In this document: piece after piece, positions 1 to 51,491 of the stretch
Layout of the letters: each line of letters starts with the position of its first letter
Numbering within the stretch: position 1 is the first letter of the stretch
Source of the DNA: a virus
Virus record (IMG/VR): IMGVR_UViG_3300031746_000002
Span: 32,001-96,000 of that record
Reading direction: 5' to 3' (one strand)
Length of the DNA: 64,000 nucleotides
Made by a program: the position numbers and the translations under genes
The notes under the pieces: generated by a model
Told to the model about the DNA's origin: nothing
The model's input: only the letters and a program-made list of their open reading frames with translations
The model's database searches: none

Positions 1-272
1 GTTAATGATTATTTTACTCGAAAAAAGGAGAAAAAGAATGAAGTGTAATCACAAATGGTTGTATCTTATTTTCGGAAACAGACTTTGCAAGCGCTGTCCT
101 ATGAGTTTAACATTATTCATGCCAGTACCGGATAAAGATGGAGTAAAGCAAGAAACAAAACCTGAAACAAAATGTATAGCACAATGGATGCCAATACTTC
201 TTACAGAAACTACAGCAGCAATCAATTCACTTGTTAAAATCGCATTAGAAAAGAAATGAGGGGTTATTAATT

Positions 273-2428: not shown

Positions 2429-2899
2429 ATGAAAGTGGTGAACAAAACAAATCTCGACACAAACCGCCTCAGAAATCTTTTCACTGAAACAAAAGGTAAT
2501 GTCAAATCTAGCGGATTATTGGTAATCGTTTATAACTGTAATCGATTAGCGCATGGTATGGCTTGGAATGTTAGGTCTTTCAGAATGAACCATAAGCAGA
2601 ATTATATAAAATGTAATGATGCTATCGAACTATGGATTAATACTGCAAGACAATATCCTATAACGACCATTTTAAGATCAAGAGATGGTTATAAATCATT
2701 TATGTGTATTGATCCTTATAATTTGATTACTCTCATTTTTCTACATGAAATTGGGCACGTTAAGGATTATCAAAAAGGTAAATCATCAAAATATAGACAA
2801 ACACATTGTGATGAATATGCTATAAAACAAGCAGAAAAATATGGGATAGCATGGGAAACAAGTAGATTAGTTCCTGTTATAATAAAGGAAAAGGAATAA
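2429..2899 (+). CDS. Putative HExxH zinc metalloprotease-like protein
   Basis: FLHEIGH motif; RBS. Confidence 0.55.
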   Translation: MKVVNKTNLDTNRLRNLFTETKGNVKSSGLLVIVYNCNRLAHGMAWNVRSFRMNHKQNYIKCNDAIELWINTARQYPITTILRSRDGYKSFMCIDPYNLITLIFLHEIGHVKDYQKGKSSKYRQTHCDEYAIKQAEKYGIAWETSRLVPVIIKEKE

Positions 2900-2988
2900 T
2901 ATGAAACTTAAAGATTTGATTTGTATTGGAATAGCAGTTATTTTAGGACAGTGGTTAGTTCAATTAATTTTAAATAAAGGAGGAAACA

Positions 2989-3900
2989 ATGGATTTAACA
3001 CAATTAAAGAATTATGCAGAAACAACAAGGGATATACCAAAAGAAATAAATGCACAGCAGATGATGGCTGAACTTGCATCAGCAGTAAATATTCCTGAAA
3101 AGCATAGCAGGAAATATAGAATTGAACACGAGATAATAAAGCAAGGAACTCCTGTTACTCTTATTAGTATGCGTAATGCTATTTTGATGGGATATAAATC
3201 ACTCAATATTATTTTTGATACTGATTTAAAAATTCATAAATTAAAATCAAAAGATGGTGGGCTTCTTATGAGTGACCATCCACAGGAAATATTCCTTGCC
3301 CATGAAGGATTAAAAGCTGCACATGGAGTAGTTCTCATGGGTGGTTTAGGATTAGGCTATGCAGCAACGAAGCTTGCACAAAGGAAAGATATTTCAAGGA
3401 TATACGTAATTGAAATTGATAAAGAAATAATCAAGCTAATTAAACCACATTTGGGACCAAAGATAACAGTAATAAATGAAAGTATCTATACATTCTTACG
3501 ATGCTATAATTACAAAGTTGATTATGTCTTTTTAGATACATGGTACCAGACTGGTGAAAGTACATATTGGGACACTGTATTTCCTTTAAGAATATTAGCA
3601 AGAAAAAGATTTGTTAAATCTGAAAAGGATATATTCTGCTGGGGAGAAGAAGAGATGTTAGGACAGGTAAAAACATCAATGTGTCATGTACTCAGCGGTG
3701 ATTTGAAACCCTGGAATAAAGCATTGTATGCAGTTCATGTTGCAATCATACGTAAATTAACTAAATCAGATGGATTAAGAGACATACCAACTGTTGTTAA
3801 TAAATTCTTCACAGATGTTGGTTCAAAGGAATGGGAGAAGGAATGGCATTTTTCTAAGTGTCTTAAAATTGCTGATAAAAACTATAAGGAGCAAAAATGA
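2989..3900 (+). CDS. Class I SAM-dependent methyltransferase / spermidine synthase-like protein
   Basis: VLMGGLGLG, YVIEIDKEII and DYVFLDTW motifs. Confidence 0.75.
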   Translation: MDLTQLKNYAETTRDIPKEINAQQMMAELASAVNIPEKHSRKYRIEHEIIKQGTPVTLISMRNAILMGYKSLNIIFDTDLKIHKLKSKDGGLLMSDHPQEIFLAHEGLKAAHGVVLMGGLGLGYAATKLAQRKDISRIYVIEIDKEIIKLIKPHLGPKITVINESIYTFLRCYNYKVDYVFLDTWYQTGESTYWDTVFPLRILARKRFVKSEKDIFCWGEEEMLGQVKTSMCHVLSGDLKPWNKALYAVHVAIIRKLTKSDGLRDIPTVVNKFFTDVGSKEWEKEWHFSKCLKIADKNYKEQK

Positions 3901-4163
3901 ATTTAGTAACTCGTGTAGAAAGAAATGAAAACAATAAACCTTTATCTTGTGATGTAACTTATAATGGGGTTACTATTACTTTTGCTATAGTTAAGAATGG
4001 CGAGATAAGAGATATAGGCAGAAGTTGTAGCTCAAACATACTTTATGACTATGATCAATTCAGAGTATCAAAAATAGTTTATTATAAAATGTTGAAACAA
4101 GCAATGGGAATATTAAAAGGGAAGGTTAAGCATAATGAAACAACACAAACAATTACCAAATAA
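3897..4163 (+). CDS. Hypothetical protein
   Basis: ATGA-coupled ORF with RBS. Confidence 0.6.
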   Translation: MNLVTRVERNENNKPLSCDVTYNGVTITFAIVKNGEIRDIGRSCSSNILYDYDQFRVSKIVYYKMLKQAMGILKGKVKHNETTQTITK

Positions 4164-4321
4164 TCCTTATCATATTACAGATAAGAAATCAAAGAAACAT
4201 TATTGGATAAAAACTCATTGTAGTACTTGTGGTATTCATAAAGAATTAAATACTAGTTGGCAATTTGAAATATGTTATAGGTCTTGTATACAAAGGAATT
4301 ATATACCTTAAGGAGGAAACA

Positions 4322-4534
4322 GTGAAAAAAATTCTAGATGCAACTTGGTTTACTGCTGGAAGCAATTGTATTGGTATTGTTATTATCCAAGACTTAATAA
4401 CAAAAGAAAAGAAAGCATATATTGGATTAGGTAAAGGTCTTGACGAAGGCGAAGATGCAACTGAAATCACAAGTAAAGGTAATCAATTACCATTGGAAAT
4501 ATTACAAGAAATTTGTGCTAAATTAAAAGTATAA
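4322..4534 (+). CDS. Hypothetical protein (GTG start inferred)
   Basis: AGGAGG RBS before in-frame GTG at 4322. Confidence 0.6.
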   Translation: MKKILDATWFTAGSNCIGIVIIQDLITKEKKAYIGLGKGLDEGEDATEITSKGNQLPLEILQEICAKLKV

Positions 4535-4539
4535 TATAT

Positions 4540-4611
4540 TTAGCCTGTGGGTTTTCAGAAGCTTAGTTCACCACTTTCCTTCTGATGAAAGTTTTCCAGC
4601 CCACAGGCTAA
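4540..4611 (+). ncRNA. Putative antisense hairpin sRNA A
   Basis: Stem TAGCCTGTGGG/CCCACAGGCTA, inner stem TCAGAAG/CTTCTGA, 17-nt loop complementary to AAAGTGGTGAA sites in early genes; TATAAT at 4530. Confidence 0.55.
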
Positions 4612-4628
4612 CCTTAAAGGATAAGACA

Positions 4629-4856
4629 ATGAATAATTTACCTGATGGATATGCAGAATTCATAGATAATGTAATGCAACATTTAATGGACCGTGATTAT
4701 AAAATTGTAAAAGTTATTACAATACCAGTTTTTGGGCAAATAATGCAAGTCAATGTTTGCGAAGTAGTTGGTGGAAAAGATGATGGATTAATTTTCGGTA
4801 AAGCTCAGGGTACTAATATTGCAATATTATTGGATAAGAAAGAATATGAAAGATAA
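4629..4856 (+). CDS. Hypothetical protein
   Basis: ORF with AAGGA RBS. Confidence 0.6.
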   Translation: MNNLPDGYAEFIDNVMQHLMDRDYKIVKVITIPVFGQIMQVNVCEVVGGKDDGLIFGKAQGTNIAILLDKKEYER

Positions 4857-4873
4857 CAGGTGTAAAATAAATG

Positions 4874-4918
4874 AATTATTATGTTTACGTTTTCACCGAA
4901 ATATAGTATAATATAATT
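4874..4918 (+). promoter_or_regulatory. Early sigma70-type promoter, copy 2
   Basis: TTTACG(4884)-N17-TATAAT(4907); repeat of copy 1. Confidence 0.85.
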
Positions 4919-4961
4919 AAGGAAAAGGAAACAAGGATAAATCGAAACAAAGGAGGAAGGT

Positions 4962-5966
4962 ATGGAAAACCCCAAAGTGGTGAAACTCCTAACATCAGAT
5001 GAAGTTAGGAGCAGGTTAGTAAGTGATACAAAAGGAGAAGCAGTAGAAACAATTACAATGAAAGAGTTTGAATTTGTTGATGAAGCAAAGGATGACATAA
5101 CAATTCTTTCATTAAGGAAAAAAAGATTTGAAGTTGAACCAGATGCACTCGAATCAATCTTCAGGCATGTTGGAGTACCTACCAATTTCTTTTTACGCTG
5201 CAGTAAATCAACGAAGCAGAGTATCTCAAAACAATTCCTTGAAACAAATCCAAAAGAAGTACAGGTGCTTTATGGAGAAAATAGGATTAAAAATATTTTC
5301 TCAACAAAAACACCTTATGTTCCTACACTTGAAGTATTTGATGCAGCCCAAAAATCTGTAGGGAAATCGATGATTGAAACTTACACGCAGAGTAAAGGTA
5401 AGTTCATAATCAACTGGATAACTGAATATGCATCACATCCAGTGAAAGCAGTAAATGACATTTCAAAAGCTGGCATTACAATTGAAATAGGAAAACCAAA
5501 CGTACATTTCGATTTCGGGATTTGTGTAGGTGGTTTCATTTTCCGGCTGATATGTACTAATGGAATGATAACATCAAGGAACGAAATCACACAGGTCAAA
5601 GGTAGTTCAAAGGAAGAAATACTTACTAATATTAAAGGATTAGTAAGTGAGTCCTATGAAGCAGTTACAAAAAAAGAATTGCCAAGATTTGTTCATATGG
5701 CAACTGTACCAATCGACGATCCCGCTAATGCAGTTCACCAGCTGGCAAGGCAGAACCATATTCCAAGAGGTCATATAAAAACATTGCTTGACAGAGTACC
5801 ATCACTCGGGCAGAAGCCCACAATGTATGGAGTTATAAATCTGATAACTTCATATGCAAAAGAAATTCCGGATTATTACCAGAGAAGGAAAGTTCAATCA
5901 TTGGGCGGCGAAGTATTAAGAACTCAGCACAAATGCCCGACATGTCTCCATACTCTGGCATCATAA
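4962..5966 (+). CDS. DUF932-like phage protein
   Basis: GFIFRLICTNGMI motif and TMYGVINLITSYA helix. Confidence 0.65.
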   Translation: MENPKVVKLLTSDEVRSRLVSDTKGEAVETITMKEFEFVDEAKDDITILSLRKKRFEVEPDALESIFRHVGVPTNFFLRCSKSTKQSISKQFLETNPKEVQVLYGENRIKNIFSTKTPYVPTLEVFDAAQKSVGKSMIETYTQSKGKFIINWITEYASHPVKAVNDISKAGITIEIGKPNVHFDFGICVGGFIFRLICTNGMITSRNEITQVKGSSKEEILTNIKGLVSESYEAVTKKELPRFVHMATVPIDDPANAVHQLARQNHIPRGHIKTLLDRVPSLGQKPTMYGVINLITSYAKEIPDYYQRRKVQSLGGEVLRTQHKCPTCLHTLAS

Positions 5967-6028
5967 TCCGAAACAGGGAGTTAATCACTCCCTGTCTACT
6001 GGGGATAATCTCCCAGTACTGATGAGGA
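5967..6028 (+). ncRNA. Hammerhead ribozyme, type II; predicted cleavage after C5996
   Basis: TCC-GAAA-[CAGGGAGT/ACTCCCTG]-TC-[TACTGGG/CCCAGTA]-CTGATGA-GGA: full catalytic core and three stems. Confidence 0.9.
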
Positions 6029-6035
6029 AGATAAA

Positions 6036-6272
6036 ATGAAAATAGATTACATCAAAAAAGAAAATAAAATTATAACTCAGATAGACATACTTCATAAAGG
6101 TATATTATACAGCTTTATGAATAATGAAGGCAGAGCTATTGAAATTAGTAGACGAACTAAAGGTAAATGTAAATCACCGAATTATGAACCTGGAATTGCT
6201 AAAGGATATTATGTTGATATAATAGAACTTGCTAATAAAGCTATTATGAAAAGTTTAAAGAAAAAGGCTTAA
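6036..6272 (+). CDS. Hypothetical protein
   Basis: ORF whose RBS overlaps the ribozyme 3' end. Confidence 0.6.
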   Translation: MKIDYIKKENKIITQIDILHKGILYSFMNNEGRAIEISRRTKGKCKSPNYEPGIAKGYYVDIIELANKAIMKSLKKKA

Positions 6273-6294
6273 TAATATATAAAGGTATAAAGCA

Positions 6295-8103
6295 ATGAAT
6301 AAGAAAGCATTACAAAATCAAAAACAAAAGCAAGAAATACTTGAAGAACTTGCTAAACACAATATCAATATATCTATTGGTGATACTATATTAACTAGTG
6401 ATGGAGACCTTTATGTAATTGATAAAATAGATAAAGAAGGTATTCATTTAAAAAATCGTTTAGAAGATGACCCTGAACAAAGCCATTATGGAACTATAAA
6501 TGTAAAGGATTTTATAAGCAGAGATTATATCAAGCTGGATAAACCTATAGAAGAGTTTGAAAAAGAACTAGCTAATAATTTTTTAAATCTAGATAAATAT
6601 GAAGAAGACAAAACTGAAAGCACTTCAACTGAAATAGCTGTGAAAAGTTCAAAAGCTCAATTGGTTAATTTGAAAAATTCTTTGGAAGATAAAAAAAGAA
6701 ACATAATGATTTTAGAAAGAATACTTTATGCTAAACGAAACTATATGCAAAGTATAGTTCATGATTTAGAAGAAAAAGTTGAAAAAATATATAAAGTCTT
6801 AGACATCATTGAATTGTATCTTGGCATTTATGAAACAATTATTCAAATACAAAAAGGACCTAAAGCAAAGGATAGTGACCCAATAACATTTCGCCAAGCA
6901 GTATTATTTATGGATGAAGAAGTTGGTGACCCAGAAGATCAAGGTTTAGATTTTAAAAAGATAGAACAGTTTGATGATTGGTTATTAAAAAATTATAAGA
7001 AAATACTTACAGAAGAAAAATGTGTTGTTGTTATGAAACCACGAAGACATGATAAAGATTATGGTGGAAATTGGTATGAAAATTTTATTATGAATAGAGA
7101 AAATCATAGAACATATTTTTTGATTAGGAATGGAATGAATTTTTATAGGATAGACTCTAATATTCATGTTGATAAGTTATTTTTTCCAGGCAAAGATGAA
7201 ATGGAAGAAATATATAAAATAGCTAATGAAGATTTTGGCCATGACAAGGATGAAGCAGAAGATATAATATTAAGCTATAAACGTAATGCATTAATGATGC
7301 AAGGTTTAATTGATAGGACTGAAATATTTCACCCATTGCCTCATTACATTAATATATTCGATCAAAAGACTTATAAAAAAGCAATTCAATTTGTGAGAGA
7401 TGGGGAAACATGTTTACCTGATGGACATAAATCATTTAAAGACTGGAAAGAAGCATTAAATTCAAAAATAAAAATAGGTTCAAGGATTGTATTTTCTGGT
7501 TTTGGACATGGTGAGTTTAGTACTTATGAAAGCAGTCATTATGCTAATCAAGCAAAATATTATCATAGGTTTCCTTGTGTACCAGAAAATATGCCAGAAC
7601 GAGGAATTTATACAGTAGAATTATATTATACATCAAACAGCAGATATAGTGAAGGTAAAGAAATGTTGTTATGTAAATATGCCCAAGGTGGTGAAAGACG
7701 AATTGGTTGGGGTTATGAAGCAATTGAAAGAAAAAATAGGACATCATTTTATTTATATCGAAATGACTATTGCGTGTTTAACTATGATATGTTAGAATTA
7801 GATGATATCGAATTTTATATAAACAGCAGGATTGATAGGGAAAATTATCGTGAGAATATTCCTTTATTATGGGAAATTAAAAAACAACGGTTAAAAGAAC
7901 TTGAATGGGAAAAAGGATTTGTAGAACATTTGAAATTGGAAATTGATTACGATAATAAAAAGGAATTAGAAAAAATAATATGGGACTGTATTACTTGGTG
8001 GAAAAATAAAGTTATTTGGAAACGTCCCATAATGAAAGATGATGCGAAAGCATTGAGAATGATTAAAGGAAGAATAAATAGAATTATAAGGGAGAAAAAA
8101 TGA
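6295..8103 (+). CDS. Hypothetical coiled-coil phage protein
   Basis: 602-aa ORF behind a GCTTAATAAT motif. Confidence 0.7.
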   Translation: MNKKALQNQKQKQEILEELAKHNINISIGDTILTSDGDLYVIDKIDKEGIHLKNRLEDDPEQSHYGTINVKDFISRDYIKLDKPIEEFEKELANNFLNLDKYEEDKTESTSTEIAVKSSKAQLVNLKNSLEDKKRNIMILERILYAKRNYMQSIVHDLEEKVEKIYKVLDIIELYLGIYETIIQIQKGPKAKDSDPITFRQAVLFMDEEVGDPEDQGLDFKKIEQFDDWLLKNYKKILTEEKCVVVMKPRRHDKDYGGNWYENFIMNRENHRTYFLIRNGMNFYRIDSNIHVDKLFFPGKDEMEEIYKIANEDFGHDKDEAEDIILSYKRNALMMQGLIDRTEIFHPLPHYINIFDQKTYKKAIQFVRDGETCLPDGHKSFKDWKEALNSKIKIGSRIVFSGFGHGEFSTYESSHYANQAKYYHRFPCVPENMPERGIYTVELYYTSNSRYSEGKEMLLCKYAQGGERRIGWGYEAIERKNRTSFYLYRNDYCVFNYDMLELDDIEFYINSRIDRENYRENIPLLWEIKKQRLKELEWEKGFVEHLKLEIDYDNKKELEKIIWDCITWWKNKVIWKRPIMKDDAKALRMIKGRINRIIREKK

Positions 8104-8295
8104 AAAGAATAGAAAAATTAATGCTGAAATATGGAACGGTATGTATACAAAATACTGGAACAAGAACAGAGATATATATCATGCTTGGTGATATGATTGA
8201 GTCTCCAGGTTGTAAATTAATTAGTACAGGTATAACATTGAAACATGCGTTAAAAAATATAGACAATAAAGATTTGAAAGCAATGAGGAGAAAAA

Positions 8296-9096
8296 ATGAT
8301 AAATGATAAAACAAAGCTTTTGAAATTCTGTGTAGCTGGATATCGTGGTAAAGTTGGTTCATACATACTTAATGGACTTATAAAATATCTACCAACTGCA
8401 GTGAATATTTATTGTTTTGATACTGGAGACACTGCAGAAGATATATATAAAAGGATAAAGGACTCTGATATTATTTTTAATTGTATATCATTTGAAGAAA
8501 CATTAAATTTTTTAGAATTTCATAAAGAAGATTTAAAAAATAAAATAGTCATTGATCAATCATCTTGGAAAACAGATGTGTTCAATTGGAATATGAAAAA
8601 TAAAGATATCCGCATTGAATACATGCATATATTGTTCGACCCATCAAGAACACCAAAAGAAGATAGGCACATACTTTTGTTTACATCTGTAGATTTAAAA
8701 ATGAACAGATATTATGAAATAGATGGTTTTGATTTAAATGATTTTTGTAAAAAGGGATTAGAAAGTGATTATATGTTTTTCAATGAACCAACATTCAGAG
8801 CAAATAAAGAACAAAGGGAAACTGATCACCATTGTAATCCAAATATTTGTTTGCTTCGTAGAATAATAAAAGAACATGATGAAACAATAGCATATCAACA
8901 ACCTATGTTATATGATGCACTTAATAAAGTTATAAAGGATTATGAAAAGAAATTTCATCGCGACCAGTATGATTATGAAACTAGAAATTTTAAAAAGCTA
9001 AGAGAACTTGTTGATAGGATAAATACAATGAGTCCCACACTGAAACAAGGATTATATAAAAATCCATTCTATAAAAAACTAAAGGAGACAAAATGA
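8296..9096 (+). CDS. Divergent prephenate dehydrogenase (TyrA)-like protein
   Basis: VAGYRGKVG Rossmann loop, VIDQSSWK, HILFDP (cf. HPMFGP), HDETIAYQQ. Confidence 0.6.
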   Translation: MINDKTKLLKFCVAGYRGKVGSYILNGLIKYLPTAVNIYCFDTGDTAEDIYKRIKDSDIIFNCISFEETLNFLEFHKEDLKNKIVIDQSSWKTDVFNWNMKNKDIRIEYMHILFDPSRTPKEDRHILLFTSVDLKMNRYYEIDGFDLNDFCKKGLESDYMFFNEPTFRANKEQRETDHHCNPNICLLRRIIKEHDETIAYQQPMLYDALNKVIKDYEKKFHRDQYDYETRNFKKLRELVDRINTMSPTLKQGLYKNPFYKKLKETK

Positions 9097-9431
9097 AAAC
9101 ACAAATTTTAGTAGGTAAAGCAGAAGTCAATGGCAGGTTTTATAAGGTTAAAGTAAAAAAGACTATTGACGAAGAGAAGTTTACATTACGTAAGATGAGT
9201 AAAGAAAGATTTGATAAGATAGTTGCTACATATGAAAAAGGACAAGCTGCAGCTGAGAAATATTTTGCAGAGCAAAGGGCTGCAATGGAATATAGGAAGC
9301 AAAAACCAGTGACACCAGCTGAGGTTATTAAAAGTGATGCTGTAGAAAAAATTGCAGAAATAAAAACACTGAAACTGAGTATTTGGGCTAGAATAATGCA
9401 GTTCATTAAAAAGCTATTGGGGAAGAAGTAA
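9093..9431 (+). CDS. Hypothetical protein
   Basis: ORF with RBS. Confidence 0.6.
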   Translation: MKTQILVGKAEVNGRFYKVKVKKTIDEEKFTLRKMSKERFDKIVATYEKGQAAAEKYFAEQRAAMEYRKQKPVTPAEVIKSDAVEKIAEIKTLKLSIWARIMQFIKKLLGKK

Positions 9432-9550
9432 TCTGAACAATTTGTTTCAAAGGGCTTAATAATTAAGATAGTATGGTATAACCTATACCTTTATGGTTAT
9501 AATTGAGCCAGCGAAGCCCAGCTATCACAGATTTAGTCCAGGGAGGACAA

Positions 9551-48572: not shown

Positions 48573-51491
48573 ATGCCACGCAAAGCAAATATTAGAGGTG
48601 TTGATTTTATAAAACCAAAGAAAACAAAAGAAAAATCACTCTTCGATTCTTTTGATAGATCAGTAGAAGCAAAGAGCAGCAACTTAGGAATATATTGGGA
48701 AGAAAATCCTGTTGGAATTAGAGAATTTGTAACAAGCTTTGACCATATGGGAATACCCAATGGTTTGAGTGATGAACAGTACGAACCATTAGAATTTTTA
48801 TTTGGAAATGAACCAAAGAAAATTTTTGATAATGGTAACACAACAGGAATTGAAGAGTGGGGCAAAGGATGTATAAGCGGTGATGCTAAAATTAGGGATG
48901 TAGAAACAGGAACAGAATATACTATTGAACAACTATATAAATTAAAAAAAGAAATAACAGTACAATGTATTGATGAAGAAAATAAAATTAGAATATCGCA
49001 AGCATCAGTTCCTTGGATTAAAGGAATAGATGATTTATATGAAGTAAAAACAAAATTGGGAAAATCAATTAAAGTAACTAAAGAACATAGATTTAAAACA
49101 CAAAATGGCTGGAAACAATTAAAAGATCTTAGAGTTGACAGCGTTATATTAGATGACAATGATAAAGTAGAATGTAAGTTATGTGGAGAATATGTAAAAT
49201 CGATTCCAAACCACTTACAATGGAATCATCCAGATATAAAGTTAAATGATTATAAATTATTATTTCCTAAAGCAAAGGTATTATCAGATACATGGAAAAA
49301 ATCATGTGGCAGAGCTGGAAAGAAACATTGGGCATTTGGAAAAAAACATCTTAATTCTGGTATAGGATTTGTTAAATATAATAAATCGAGAACTGGTAAA
49401 ACATTTAATGAATATTTTGGTAAAGAAAAAAGTAAGCAAATAAAAGAAAAAATAAAAAATACAGTAAATAAAAATAATAGTCTTTTAACATTAGCTGAGT
49501 CTAAAAAAAAATATGGACGATCTGGTAAAAAACATCATAATTGGAAAGGCGGCATTAGTTATACTTATAAAATCGGTGATACTTATTTAGGAACATTTGG
49601 AAAAAAGCTTCATGAATATATTAGGAAAAGAGATAAAAATCATTGTAAGTTTTGTAAGAAACCAGTTAAAAATAAATTCAAAGGTGATATACATCATATA
49701 AATTATAACAAACTAGATGGTAGATTAGAAAATTTAATATTACTTTGTAAAAGCTGTCATTGTAAAACGCAATATGGTTTACGAAAAGTATGGATCGAAA
49801 AATGTTTAAATAAGATAATTAAACCCAAATGGGACACTATAACATCTATTACATTTTGGAAACATGATAAATATTATGATTTGGAAGTTGAAAAATATCA
49901 TAATTATTTAGCAAATGGTTTATATAACCATAATTCAGGGAAAGATTTAATAGCAGCAATTGGCTTATGTTATATCACACATGTTTTGCTTTGTTGTTCA
50001 GACCCACAGAAGTTGTTAGGAATAGGCGATATATCTGGGGAACCAATTGACTTTGTAAATGTAGCAACAAATGCAGACCAAGCATCAACAGTATTCTTTA
50101 CAAAGTTTACTGAAAGAGTAAAGCGTTGGAAATGGTTAAAGGATAAATATAATTTTAAAGTATCAGGACGAAGTTTAAATGCATTGACTACTAATAAGAA
50201 TAAGGAAATAAATTTATTCAATGATGATGTAGTAATAACATCAAACGGTATTTTATTTCCAAAGATGATAAGAGCATTCAGTGGTAACTCAGAGCAAGAA
50301 GCCCAGGAAGGTAAGAACTATTTAGTATTCATATTAGATGAAGCCAGCGGCTTTGCAGAGACAAAGACATTAAGTGCAGAGAAGATATATAAATCATTAA
50401 AGAGTTCAGCAAGAACAAGGTTTGGTGATAAGTGGAAATGCTTCATACTTTCATTTCCAAGATATAAAGATGATTTCATAGAAGTAATGCACAAAAAAGC
50501 AAAGAAACATTTGCATTGGCACACAGCAAAATTAGCAACATGGCAAGTAAAACCACCACATTGTTTCAGCGGCAAATGGTTTGAATATGAAGGACATAGA
50601 ATTCCATTAGAATACAAAGAAGATTTTGATGATGATCCAAGAGATGCAAAAGCAAAGTTCTTATGTATTCCGCCAGATGCAATTAATCCATTTATAGAAG
50701 AACAGGAAAAGATAGAGCTTTGTATAAATAAACAACGAAAGCAAATGTTCACATGTTATGATTCTCAGAAAGATAATTACGTACAGAAGAAACTAACGTT
50801 AGCACCTTGGATTAGAGTATTGCCAGCACATACTTATACATTGACTATAGACTTAGGAGTTAGTCAATGTAGTTGCGCATTATCATTGCATCATAAAGAA
50901 ATAAAAGGAAATATAGATATAATAGTACAAGACCTTGTAACAAGATGGGAGCCTATACCAAAGAAAGGATTGAGAGTAGATTTCTTTAATGTAGGTTCAA
51001 CCATTTCAATGCTTGTAAAAACATTGGGAGTAAAACAAGTAAGAGTATTCTTTGACCAATGGCAGAGTGAATTACTAATAAACATTTTAAAGAAGATAGG
51101 TATCAATGCTTTAATATATTATTTGGGTTATGAAAACTATCAAGACTTAAGAGAAAGAATTTATACAGGCAGAATAGACCTGCTTGATTATGCACCACAA
51201 ACAAAAGAGTTAAAAGAGATTTCATTAATTAAAGGTAATAAAGTAGACAGACCAGAAAATGGAACAAAGGATATTTGCGATACAGTAGCTGGTGCAATTT
51301 ATGTTCTAACAAAATATGATGAAGAGCATAGAGATAATAGGAAAGATAAAAGAGCACTGCTAGCAAAATTAAATGACGGTGAATTTATTGGATCTAATAT
51401 TTCTGAAATTGATGGTGAAGGAAATTATATTAAGCAAGAAGAAAATGCATTTGAAGGCGCAATCAGCGTATGGGATATTGCTGGTAAATAA
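48573..51491 (+). CDS. terL: Terminase large subunit containing an intein
   Basis: Spliced Walker A GKG|SGKD, ILDEAS Walker B, IDLG and KDICD nuclease motifs. Confidence 0.9.
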   Translation: MPRKANIRGVDFIKPKKTKEKSLFDSFDRSVEAKSSNLGIYWEENPVGIREFVTSFDHMGIPNGLSDEQYEPLEFLFGNEPKKIFDNGNTTGIEEWGKGCISGDAKIRDVETGTEYTIEQLYKLKKEITVQCIDEENKIRISQASVPWIKGIDDLYEVKTKLGKSIKVTKEHRFKTQNGWKQLKDLRVDSVILDDNDKVECKLCGEYVKSIPNHLQWNHPDIKLNDYKLLFPKAKVLSDTWKKSCGRAGKKHWAFGKKHLNSGIGFVKYNKSRTGKTFNEYFGKEKSKQIKEKIKNTVNKNNSLLTLAESKKKYGRSGKKHHNWKGGISYTYKIGDTYLGTFGKKLHEYIRKRDKNHCKFCKKPVKNKFKGDIHHINYNKLDGRLENLILLCKSCHCKTQYGLRKVWIEKCLNKIIKPKWDTITSITFWKHDKYYDLEVEKYHNYLANGLYNHNSGKDLIAAIGLCYITHVLLCCSDPQKLLGIGDISGEPIDFVNVATNADQASTVFFTKFTERVKRWKWLKDKYNFKVSGRSLNALTTNKNKEINLFNDDVVITSNGILFPKMIRAFSGNSEQEAQEGKNYLVFILDEASGFAETKTLSAEKIYKSLKSSARTRFGDKWKCFILSFPRYKDDFIEVMHKKAKKHLHWHTAKLATWQVKPPHCFSGKWFEYEGHRIPLEYKEDFDDDPRDAKAKFLCIPPDAINPFIEEQEKIELCINKQRKQMFTCYDSQKDNYVQKKLTLAPWIRVLPAHTYTLTIDLGVSQCSCALSLHHKEIKGNIDIIVQDLVTRWEPIPKKGLRVDFFNVGSTISMLVKTLGVKQVRVFFDQWQSELLINILKKIGINALIYYLGYENYQDLRERIYTGRIDLLDYAPQTKELKEISLIKGNKVDRPENGTKDICDTVAGAIYVLTKYDEEHRDNRKDKRALLAKLNDGEFIGSNISEIDGEGNYIKQEENAFEGAISVWDIAGK
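48870..49934 (+). mobile_element. Intein (355 aa) with HNH homing endonuclease
   Basis: Starts CISGD, TKEHRF block B, HHINYNK...NLILLCKSCH, ends YNHN before Ser. Confidence 0.92.

Follow-up and report, generated by a model that had tools for sequence, protein, structure and literature searches.

A complete type II hammerhead ribozyme lies on the + strand of a viral genome, between the TAA of an ORF at 4962-5966 and the ATG of an ORF at 6036-6272. With a probability of roughly 0.8, it is a functional ribozyme that cuts a polycistronic phage transcript between two genes, in the manner proposed by Perreault et al. (2011; PMC3088659). On sequence criteria the element is a genuine type II hammerhead, and it is very probably active. 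The window, which is the whole stretch of 64,000 nucleotides analysed here, corresponds to 32001-96000 in a linear viral record of 138.9 kb, whose completeness is estimated at 68%.

The Rfam model Hammerhead_II (RF02276) matches positions 5966-6036 (+) over its full length with 52.4 bits against a gathering score of 37 and with an E value of 6.4e-8, calculated for both strands of the 64-kb window against 4227 Rfam families. The match was seen again in a permissive scan and in a search of the whole record. The original prediction, which had named a search with Rfam hammerhead models as its check, had described a complete type II hammerhead, and this is borne out by the Rfam score, by the intact core and by covariation in a relative. 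Its parts, namely GAAA, a GUC triplet with a predicted cut after C5996, CUGAUGA and three stems, were all located at the positions that it had given, and the ribozyme begins, as had been claimed, right after the stop of the upstream gene: the TAA occupies 5964-5966, one base ahead of the CC of the ribozyme, which runs from 5967. Inspection of the sequence showed all invariant core positions to be present, and the outermost pair of stem III, A5973-U5995, corresponds to A15.1-U16.1. [quoted passage not shown] Shuffled sequences had a mean of -16.1 kcal/mol (z -3.30), and 2 of 200 shuffles folded equally well. In four DNA sequencing runs, one identical contig was found over 5700-6057, and elsewhere only short A-rich fragments. 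The features of the locus are listed in Table 1.

Table 1. Features of the hammerhead locus and its flanking genes, in positions of the window
Feature	Position	Strand	Basis or remark
Upstream gene, 334 aa	4962-5966	+	Only phrog_1362, function unknown, matched (Pfam, PHROGs, NCBIfam)
Stem II, 5' strand UCC	5967-5969	+	Pairs with GGA 6026-6028, 3 bp, open stem
Core GAA (G12, A13, A14)	5970-5972	+	Sequence and Rfam match; GAAA 5970-5973 includes A15.1
Stem-loop III	5973-5995	+	5973-5981 pairs with 5987-5995, 9 bp; loop UAAUC
C17, predicted cleavage position	5996	+	GUC 5994-5996, an NUH triplet with H17 unpaired; predicted cut between 5996 and 5997
Stem-loop I	5997-6018	+	5997-6003(4) pairs with (6011)6012-6018, 7-8 bp
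Loop I bases free for predicted pseudoknot	6006-6011	+	Include AUCU 6008-6011
Core CUGAUGA (C3 to A9)	6019-6025	+	Sequence and Rfam match
GAGGA, Shine-Dalgarno (SD)-like	6024-6028	+	G8 and A9 of the core plus stem II strand GGA 6026-6028
3' tail	6029-6034	+	Within the SD-to-ATG spacer; AGAU 6029-6032 complementary to AUCU 6008-6011
Downstream gene, 78 aa, orphan	6036-6272	+	Sole match is its own record; no family (Pfam, PHROGs, NCBIfam)

The + strand of the window carries 58 of the 59 ORFs of at least 100 aa, and most of these have an AAGGAGG-like site 5-10 nt from their ATG, from which it follows that the host ribosomes use Shine-Dalgarno pairing. The window holds a replication set consisting of a ResIII/DEAD helicase, a DnaB-like helicase, Pol III alpha, an NAD-dependent ligase and an IstB-like ATPase. 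For a 602-aa gene, only a weak match to phrog_10243 was obtained (E 0.0059) and nothing convincing. No terminator-like site was found on the + strand in 2500-9500, and promoter-like sites in the same interval were no more frequent than in shuffled sequence (37, with a mean of 39.9 in the shuffles), so that co-transcription of the genes flanking the ribozyme is plausible. Searches for other ribozymes gave none in the window at E <= 1 and none in the remaining 78.9 kb at the gathering score; at these thresholds the 138.9-kb record yielded no ribozyme besides the hammerhead. Two further features of the window were observed. A tRNA-Leu(CAG) was called by ARAGORN at 26692-26769, and the Rfam tRNA model matches 26771-26892 directly after it with 31.6 bits; the latter stretch has about 50 extra bases in the region of the anticodon arm and no ARAGORN call, and could be an intron-bearing or degenerate tRNA. 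The only Pfam match of the 972-aa ORF at 48573-51491 is an intein splicing domain over residues 112-454 (PF14890, E 7.2e-17).

The ribozyme is shared with a relative, the metagenome contig L127, which encodes an upstream protein that is 83% identical. The same hammerhead is found at L127:2115-2185 with 35.0 bits, just under the Rfam cut-off of 37. It was detected when 121 bases were scanned alone and was missed in a scan of the whole 2.8-kb locus at E <= 1; sub-threshold ribozymes can drop out through the speed filters of such a search. The two elements differ in 10 of 71 aligned columns. Six of these columns make up three compensatory pairs of stem I (A-U to G-C, C-G to U-A and G-C to A-U), and the other four are one change in loop III, one change of C17 to A, and two changes in the tail. 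The cleavage triplet of the relative is GUA, which is a permitted hammerhead triplet, A being a permitted H. All 13 core positions are identical, including an unchanged CUGAUGA, and stems I-III are fully paired in both copies (19/19 pairs in each, 38/38 cells, none broken), against 40-60% paired in a control in which the partners were slid by 1-3 columns. The covariation is that of two sequences, the window and its relative, and with so few a shuffle control has little power: the observed covariation value was reached in 62 of 500 shuffles.

Downstream of the ribozyme the two loci diverge. The relative has 14 extra bases with a canonical AAGGAG of its own, and its ATG lies 23 nt past the core GG. 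Similarity ends after the first 11 bases of the downstream ORF; the small downstream proteins (78 aa in the window and 58 aa in the relative) are unrelated, as are the next genes. Searches against Pfam, PHROGs and NCBIfam assigned no family to the downstream genes of the relative, and its 151-aa downstream protein had no match in this phage record. In the relative the ribozyme is kept, whereas the canonical SD stands apart from it, 14 nt further downstream. What is conserved is therefore the ribozyme, and the placement of the SD inside it is a peculiarity of this phage. The ribozyme stands at a break in synteny between window 6036-8103 and L127 2199-2839. A role as a marker of gene-cassette boundaries was considered and set aside, since a single relative in which homology ends about 11 nt into the downstream gene is an anecdote. 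A second indel separates about 465 nt of the window (4164-4628, including an 89-aa ORF at 4265-4534) from about 92 nt of the relative (690-781), and sits between homologues of small genes of 88 and 75 aa. At L127 2125-2201, overlapping both the hammerhead and the stretch from AAGGAG to ATG, the Rfam freshwater-2 RNA gave a weak match (25.1 bits against a cut-off of 49.9), which is probably driven by a common hairpin plus the SD/ATG consensus.

Other relatives are few. Contig L128, also from a metagenome, ends inside the upstream gene and so does not reach the ribozyme region, and a protein search gave two further relatives of the upstream protein, of 82-84% identity, on short contigs. No relatives of the upstream protein were found in viral contigs with either the single protein or an alignment of three proteins, and positions 4000-9000 gave no blastn match in a phage collection. 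The exact pattern of the window ribozyme had no further copies in viral contigs or in genome contigs.

The placement of the element was compared with that of other hammerheads in viral contigs. Viral contigs were scanned with a pattern that describes a type II hammerhead having a GUC triplet and a CC/GG stem II, and at least 120 stretches matched. The 145 matches listed, including the window, comprised 118 with both stems of at least 4 bp and 27 that were rejected; 110 of the 118 were unique. These 110 form a biased, regex-defined subset of the matches listed, with Rfam scores for the compact cases described below. The filter is conservative, because the copies in contig L042 failed the simple test of stem III (3 bp). 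Among the matches listed, an ORF of at least 50 codons stops 0-8 nt before the CC in 84 of the 110, and in the window the gap is 1 nt. Placement next to a stop codon is typical of the class. Two contigs carry arrays: eight pattern matches lie within about 4 kb of L025 (891-4791) and five within about 2.3 kb of L042 (10789-13089).

On the downstream side, ATG-initiated ORFs of at least 50 codons within 80 nt were counted. Among the matches listed, the start lies at least 12 nt away with a separate GGAG, GAGG or AGGA motif in 65 of the 110, and at least 12 nt away without such a motif in 15; it lies within 3 nt in three, and 18 have no such ORF. The remaining nine, including the window, have a start 4-11 nt past the core with the core GAGG as the only possible SD. 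Besides the window, these compact cases among the matches listed are found in L018 (three copies), L028, L082, L088 (two copies) and L121. Of the eight comparators, two score above the Rfam cut-off (48.7 and 38.2 bits), five score 30.0-34.6 bits and one is unmatched, with the Rfam rows of L028 and L088 assigned by record and not by mapped coordinates. The contig L121, which has a type II hammerhead at 2003-2059, also carries a type-P5 twister ribozyme at 135-187 (-), with 54.4 bits against a cut-off of 37.6.

Perreault et al. (2011; PMC3088659) have reported that in most type II hammerheads loop I pairs with the bases that follow stem II directly, in a pseudoknot of four or more pairs. Such a contact had been suggested for the window from the complementarity of the tail AGAT to ATCT of loop I, and this complementarity does correspond in position to the published tertiary contact of the class. 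AGAU at 6029-6032 and AUCU at 6008-6011 would give four contiguous base pairs, and five of the six possible pairs could form. For the window copy alone, a match of this length is not above chance; it is equalled by 1102 of 5000 shuffled tails (22%), and among the matches listed 16 of 109 foreign tails reach four pairs with the window loop I. In the relative, the tail and loop I have five contiguous pairs (five of six possible) at the expected position, and its two tail changes remove the first pair of the pseudoknot and add one pair further in. In the set of 110 hammerheads among the matches listed, 55 have at least four pairs between tail and loop I, against a mean of 19.5 and a maximum of 32 in 200 permutations of the tails, in agreement with the published pseudoknot. 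Perreault et al. have also described one construct in which shortening the pseudoknot from 6 bp to 4 bp made cleavage about 20-fold slower (PMC3088659). The short pseudoknot of 4 bp counts against reading the window element as competent for cleavage.

In the proposed mechanism, the ribozyme would be part of a long + strand phage message in which both flanking genes are co-transcribed. It would fold during transcription and then cut itself between C5996 and U5997. The upstream RNA would retain an intact ORF with its stop codon and would end 30 nt later in the 9-bp hairpin of stem III, with a 2',3'-cyclic phosphate. The downstream RNA would start with a 5'-OH and at once with the hairpin of stem I, followed by GAGGA, a spacer of 8 nt and the ATG of the 78-aa gene. 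The two halves would be expected to separate after the cut because only the 3-bp stem II joins them. Both the chemistry of the ends and whatever protection they may give against exonucleases are what established hammerhead chemistry would predict. The likely role of the ribozyme would be to split a polycistronic transcript into hairpin-capped mRNAs that may be separately stable. Folding of the hammerhead and translation of the upstream gene may compete, because the 5' part of the ribozyme would be hidden under any ribosome that terminates at 5964-5966. The single copy in the 138.9-kb record counts against this mechanism, since many phage hammerheads come in arrays.

The ribosome-binding site of the downstream gene overlaps the ribozyme. 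No SD-like motif other than GAGGA at 6024-6028 precedes the ATG at 6036, and the spacer from G6027 to this ATG is 8 nt long. The original prediction had GAGGAAG as the 3' strand of stem II doubling as the SD. Part of this stands, in that GAGGA is the sole SD candidate; the strand of stem II is only the GGA within it, the first G and A being G8 and A9 of the core and the last A and G belonging to the pseudoknot tail. In a nested-fold model of the 5950-6075 context, which leaves out the pseudoknot and tertiary contacts so that masking in the folded ribozyme may exceed the computed value, stem II has an ensemble probability of 0.026. Opening the region from -13 to +2 of the start at 6036 costs 2.47 kcal/mol, and 21 other starts in the window cost 0.62-5.17 kcal/mol. 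GAGGA itself was modelled in two contexts of the precursor, where it opens for 0.53 and 1.54 kcal/mol, and in two of the 3' product, where 2.51 and 0.46 kcal/mol are needed; cutting thus brings no consistent relief of GAGGA. A helix stable enough to block the 30S subunit until cleavage, as SD sequestration would have it, is not found in the nested-fold model. The 3-bp helix and the 4-bp pseudoknot are a small barrier.

These observations bear on an alternative in which the ribozyme gates translation: stem II would hold GAGGA, the pseudoknot would hold the spacer, and the 78-aa gene would therefore stay silent until the cut. Cutting and loss of the 5' fragment would then free the SD, and the element would be a natural on-switch or timer. 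Three bases of the only SD candidate for the ATG at 6036 do lie in stem II, but that stem is a rarely formed helix of 3 bp in the model, and the opening cost of the start falls within the range of other starts. The phage relies on SD sites, and eight other hammerhead candidates in viral contigs, among the matches listed, have the same geometry; yet only two of these eight pass the Rfam cut-off, and the relative, with an AAGGAG of its own and a more distant ATG, does not conserve the coupling. Cleavage by hammerheads is as a rule fast and constitutive, and little time would remain for regulation. Engineered hammerheads that sequester the SD do control translation in bacteria, as described by Felletti et al. 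(2016; PMC5052635). Overall, this alternative is unlikely, and the control of downstream translation by cleavage that had been proposed earlier is not upheld by the low probability of stem II, the ordinary opening cost, a product that is no more open than the precursor, and the separate SD of the relative. The same doubt attaches to its general form, in which a minority of phage type II hammerheads including that of the window would have recruited the GAGG of the core and stem II as the sole SD of the next gene, with ribosomes loading only after the cut and loss of the 5' half, or after unfolding. The SD overlap is true of the window, non-conserved and a minority variant, and it is best read as compaction: a phage without the 14-nt SD-bearing spacer uses the GAGG that is present in every such core. 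As far as the folding model goes, any translational effect would probably be at most modest and the gating weak.

A second alternative, which is less likely again, is that the element is a non-cutting relic or a structural element, in which the hairpins of stems III and I serve as intergenic stabilisers or pause sites and the core no longer cuts usefully. The short pseudoknot, a stem II of only 3 bp and the single copy in the record would be in keeping with such a relic, as would the copy in the relative, which falls below the Rfam cut-off (35.0 against 37) and has an A at position 17. The last point loses force in that GUA is a permitted triplet. A relic would also have to account for a core that is identical at 13 of 13 positions despite differences at 10 of 71 positions of the element and a residue divergence of 17% in the upstream protein. 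The substitutions spare the core and keep every stem pair, so that selection on the whole ribozyme, and not just on two hairpins, fits the comparison. That the resemblance to a hammerhead arose by chance and has no biological meaning is a view to which the AT-rich, repeat-poor context lends something, but it is practically refuted by the Rfam match (E 6.4e-8) and by conservation with compensatory changes in the relative, beside a fold z of -3.30. The reading as a functional hammerhead that cuts between two genes is preferred.

Several features of the element agree with known systems. Perreault et al. (2011; PMC3088659) have reported that natural type II hammerheads are common in bacteria and that multiple hammerheads flank genes in prophages, and have suggested that long phage transcripts are processed in this way to gene-length mRNAs. 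The window element has the same core as the type II hammerheads with a loop I/3'-tail pseudoknot (RF02276), the same closed stems I and III and short open stem II, a tail directly after stem II, and a bacterial or phage setting. Nothing essential is different from that class, although the predicted pseudoknot of the window is among the shorter ones and the spacer between SD and ATG contains the tail. As in the prophage hammerheads described in PMC3088659, the site is intergenic, on the same strand and right after a stop codon, and the neighbouring genes vary between relatives; the phage record of the window differs in having one copy and no array. By cyPhyRNA-seq on total RNA of Desulfovibrio vulgaris, three type II hammerheads close to phage-like genes have been reported to cleave themselves (PMC8782182). 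These are alike in ribozyme type and phage-like neighbourhood, and their cutting in cells has been detected, whereas host and sequence differ and the relevant passages mention no SD overlap.

Engineered systems offer a further comparison. In RiboJ-type insulators a self-cutting hammerhead removes what lies upstream, so that the RNA starts at a fixed 5' end with a hairpin before the ribosome-binding site. RiboJ was engineered from a ribozyme of a plant satellite RNA, whereas the window element is natural and phage-borne. Felletti et al. (2016; PMC5052635) state that the first artificial riboswitch built on a hammerhead controlled the initiation of translation, and that it did so by sequestering the SD. 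In the engineered hammerhead and twister SD switches of that account, as in the window, the SD is one strand of a ribozyme helix and its release by cutting is conceivable. In the engineered switches an anti-SD helix is supplied for the purpose, usually together with an aptamer that senses a ligand, whereas the window has a helix of 3 bp, negligible modelled masking and no evident sensor. A natural hammerhead that uses its core as an SD was not found in the literature by title and abstract. The terms "Shine-Dalgarno" and "ribosome binding" have no occurrences in the main text of Perreault et al. (2011; PMC3088659), and the supplementary alignments of that paper could contain such cases.

The type II class, its pseudoknot and its placement between genes are already known in phages. 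The present element is a further type II hammerhead with good support, including covariation, from a large, uncultured phage of sediment origin that has replication genes of its own. If gating were true after all, nature would here have an equivalent of the engineered hammerhead switches that mask the SD, and the translation of a small accessory gene would be tied to RNA processing, or to folding that depends on Mg2+ or temperature. The window and its relative are a natural pair with the same ribozyme, in which the SD lies inside the core in one and 14 nt further on in the other. Such a pair is suited to asking whether phage hammerheads influence translation besides transcript processing.
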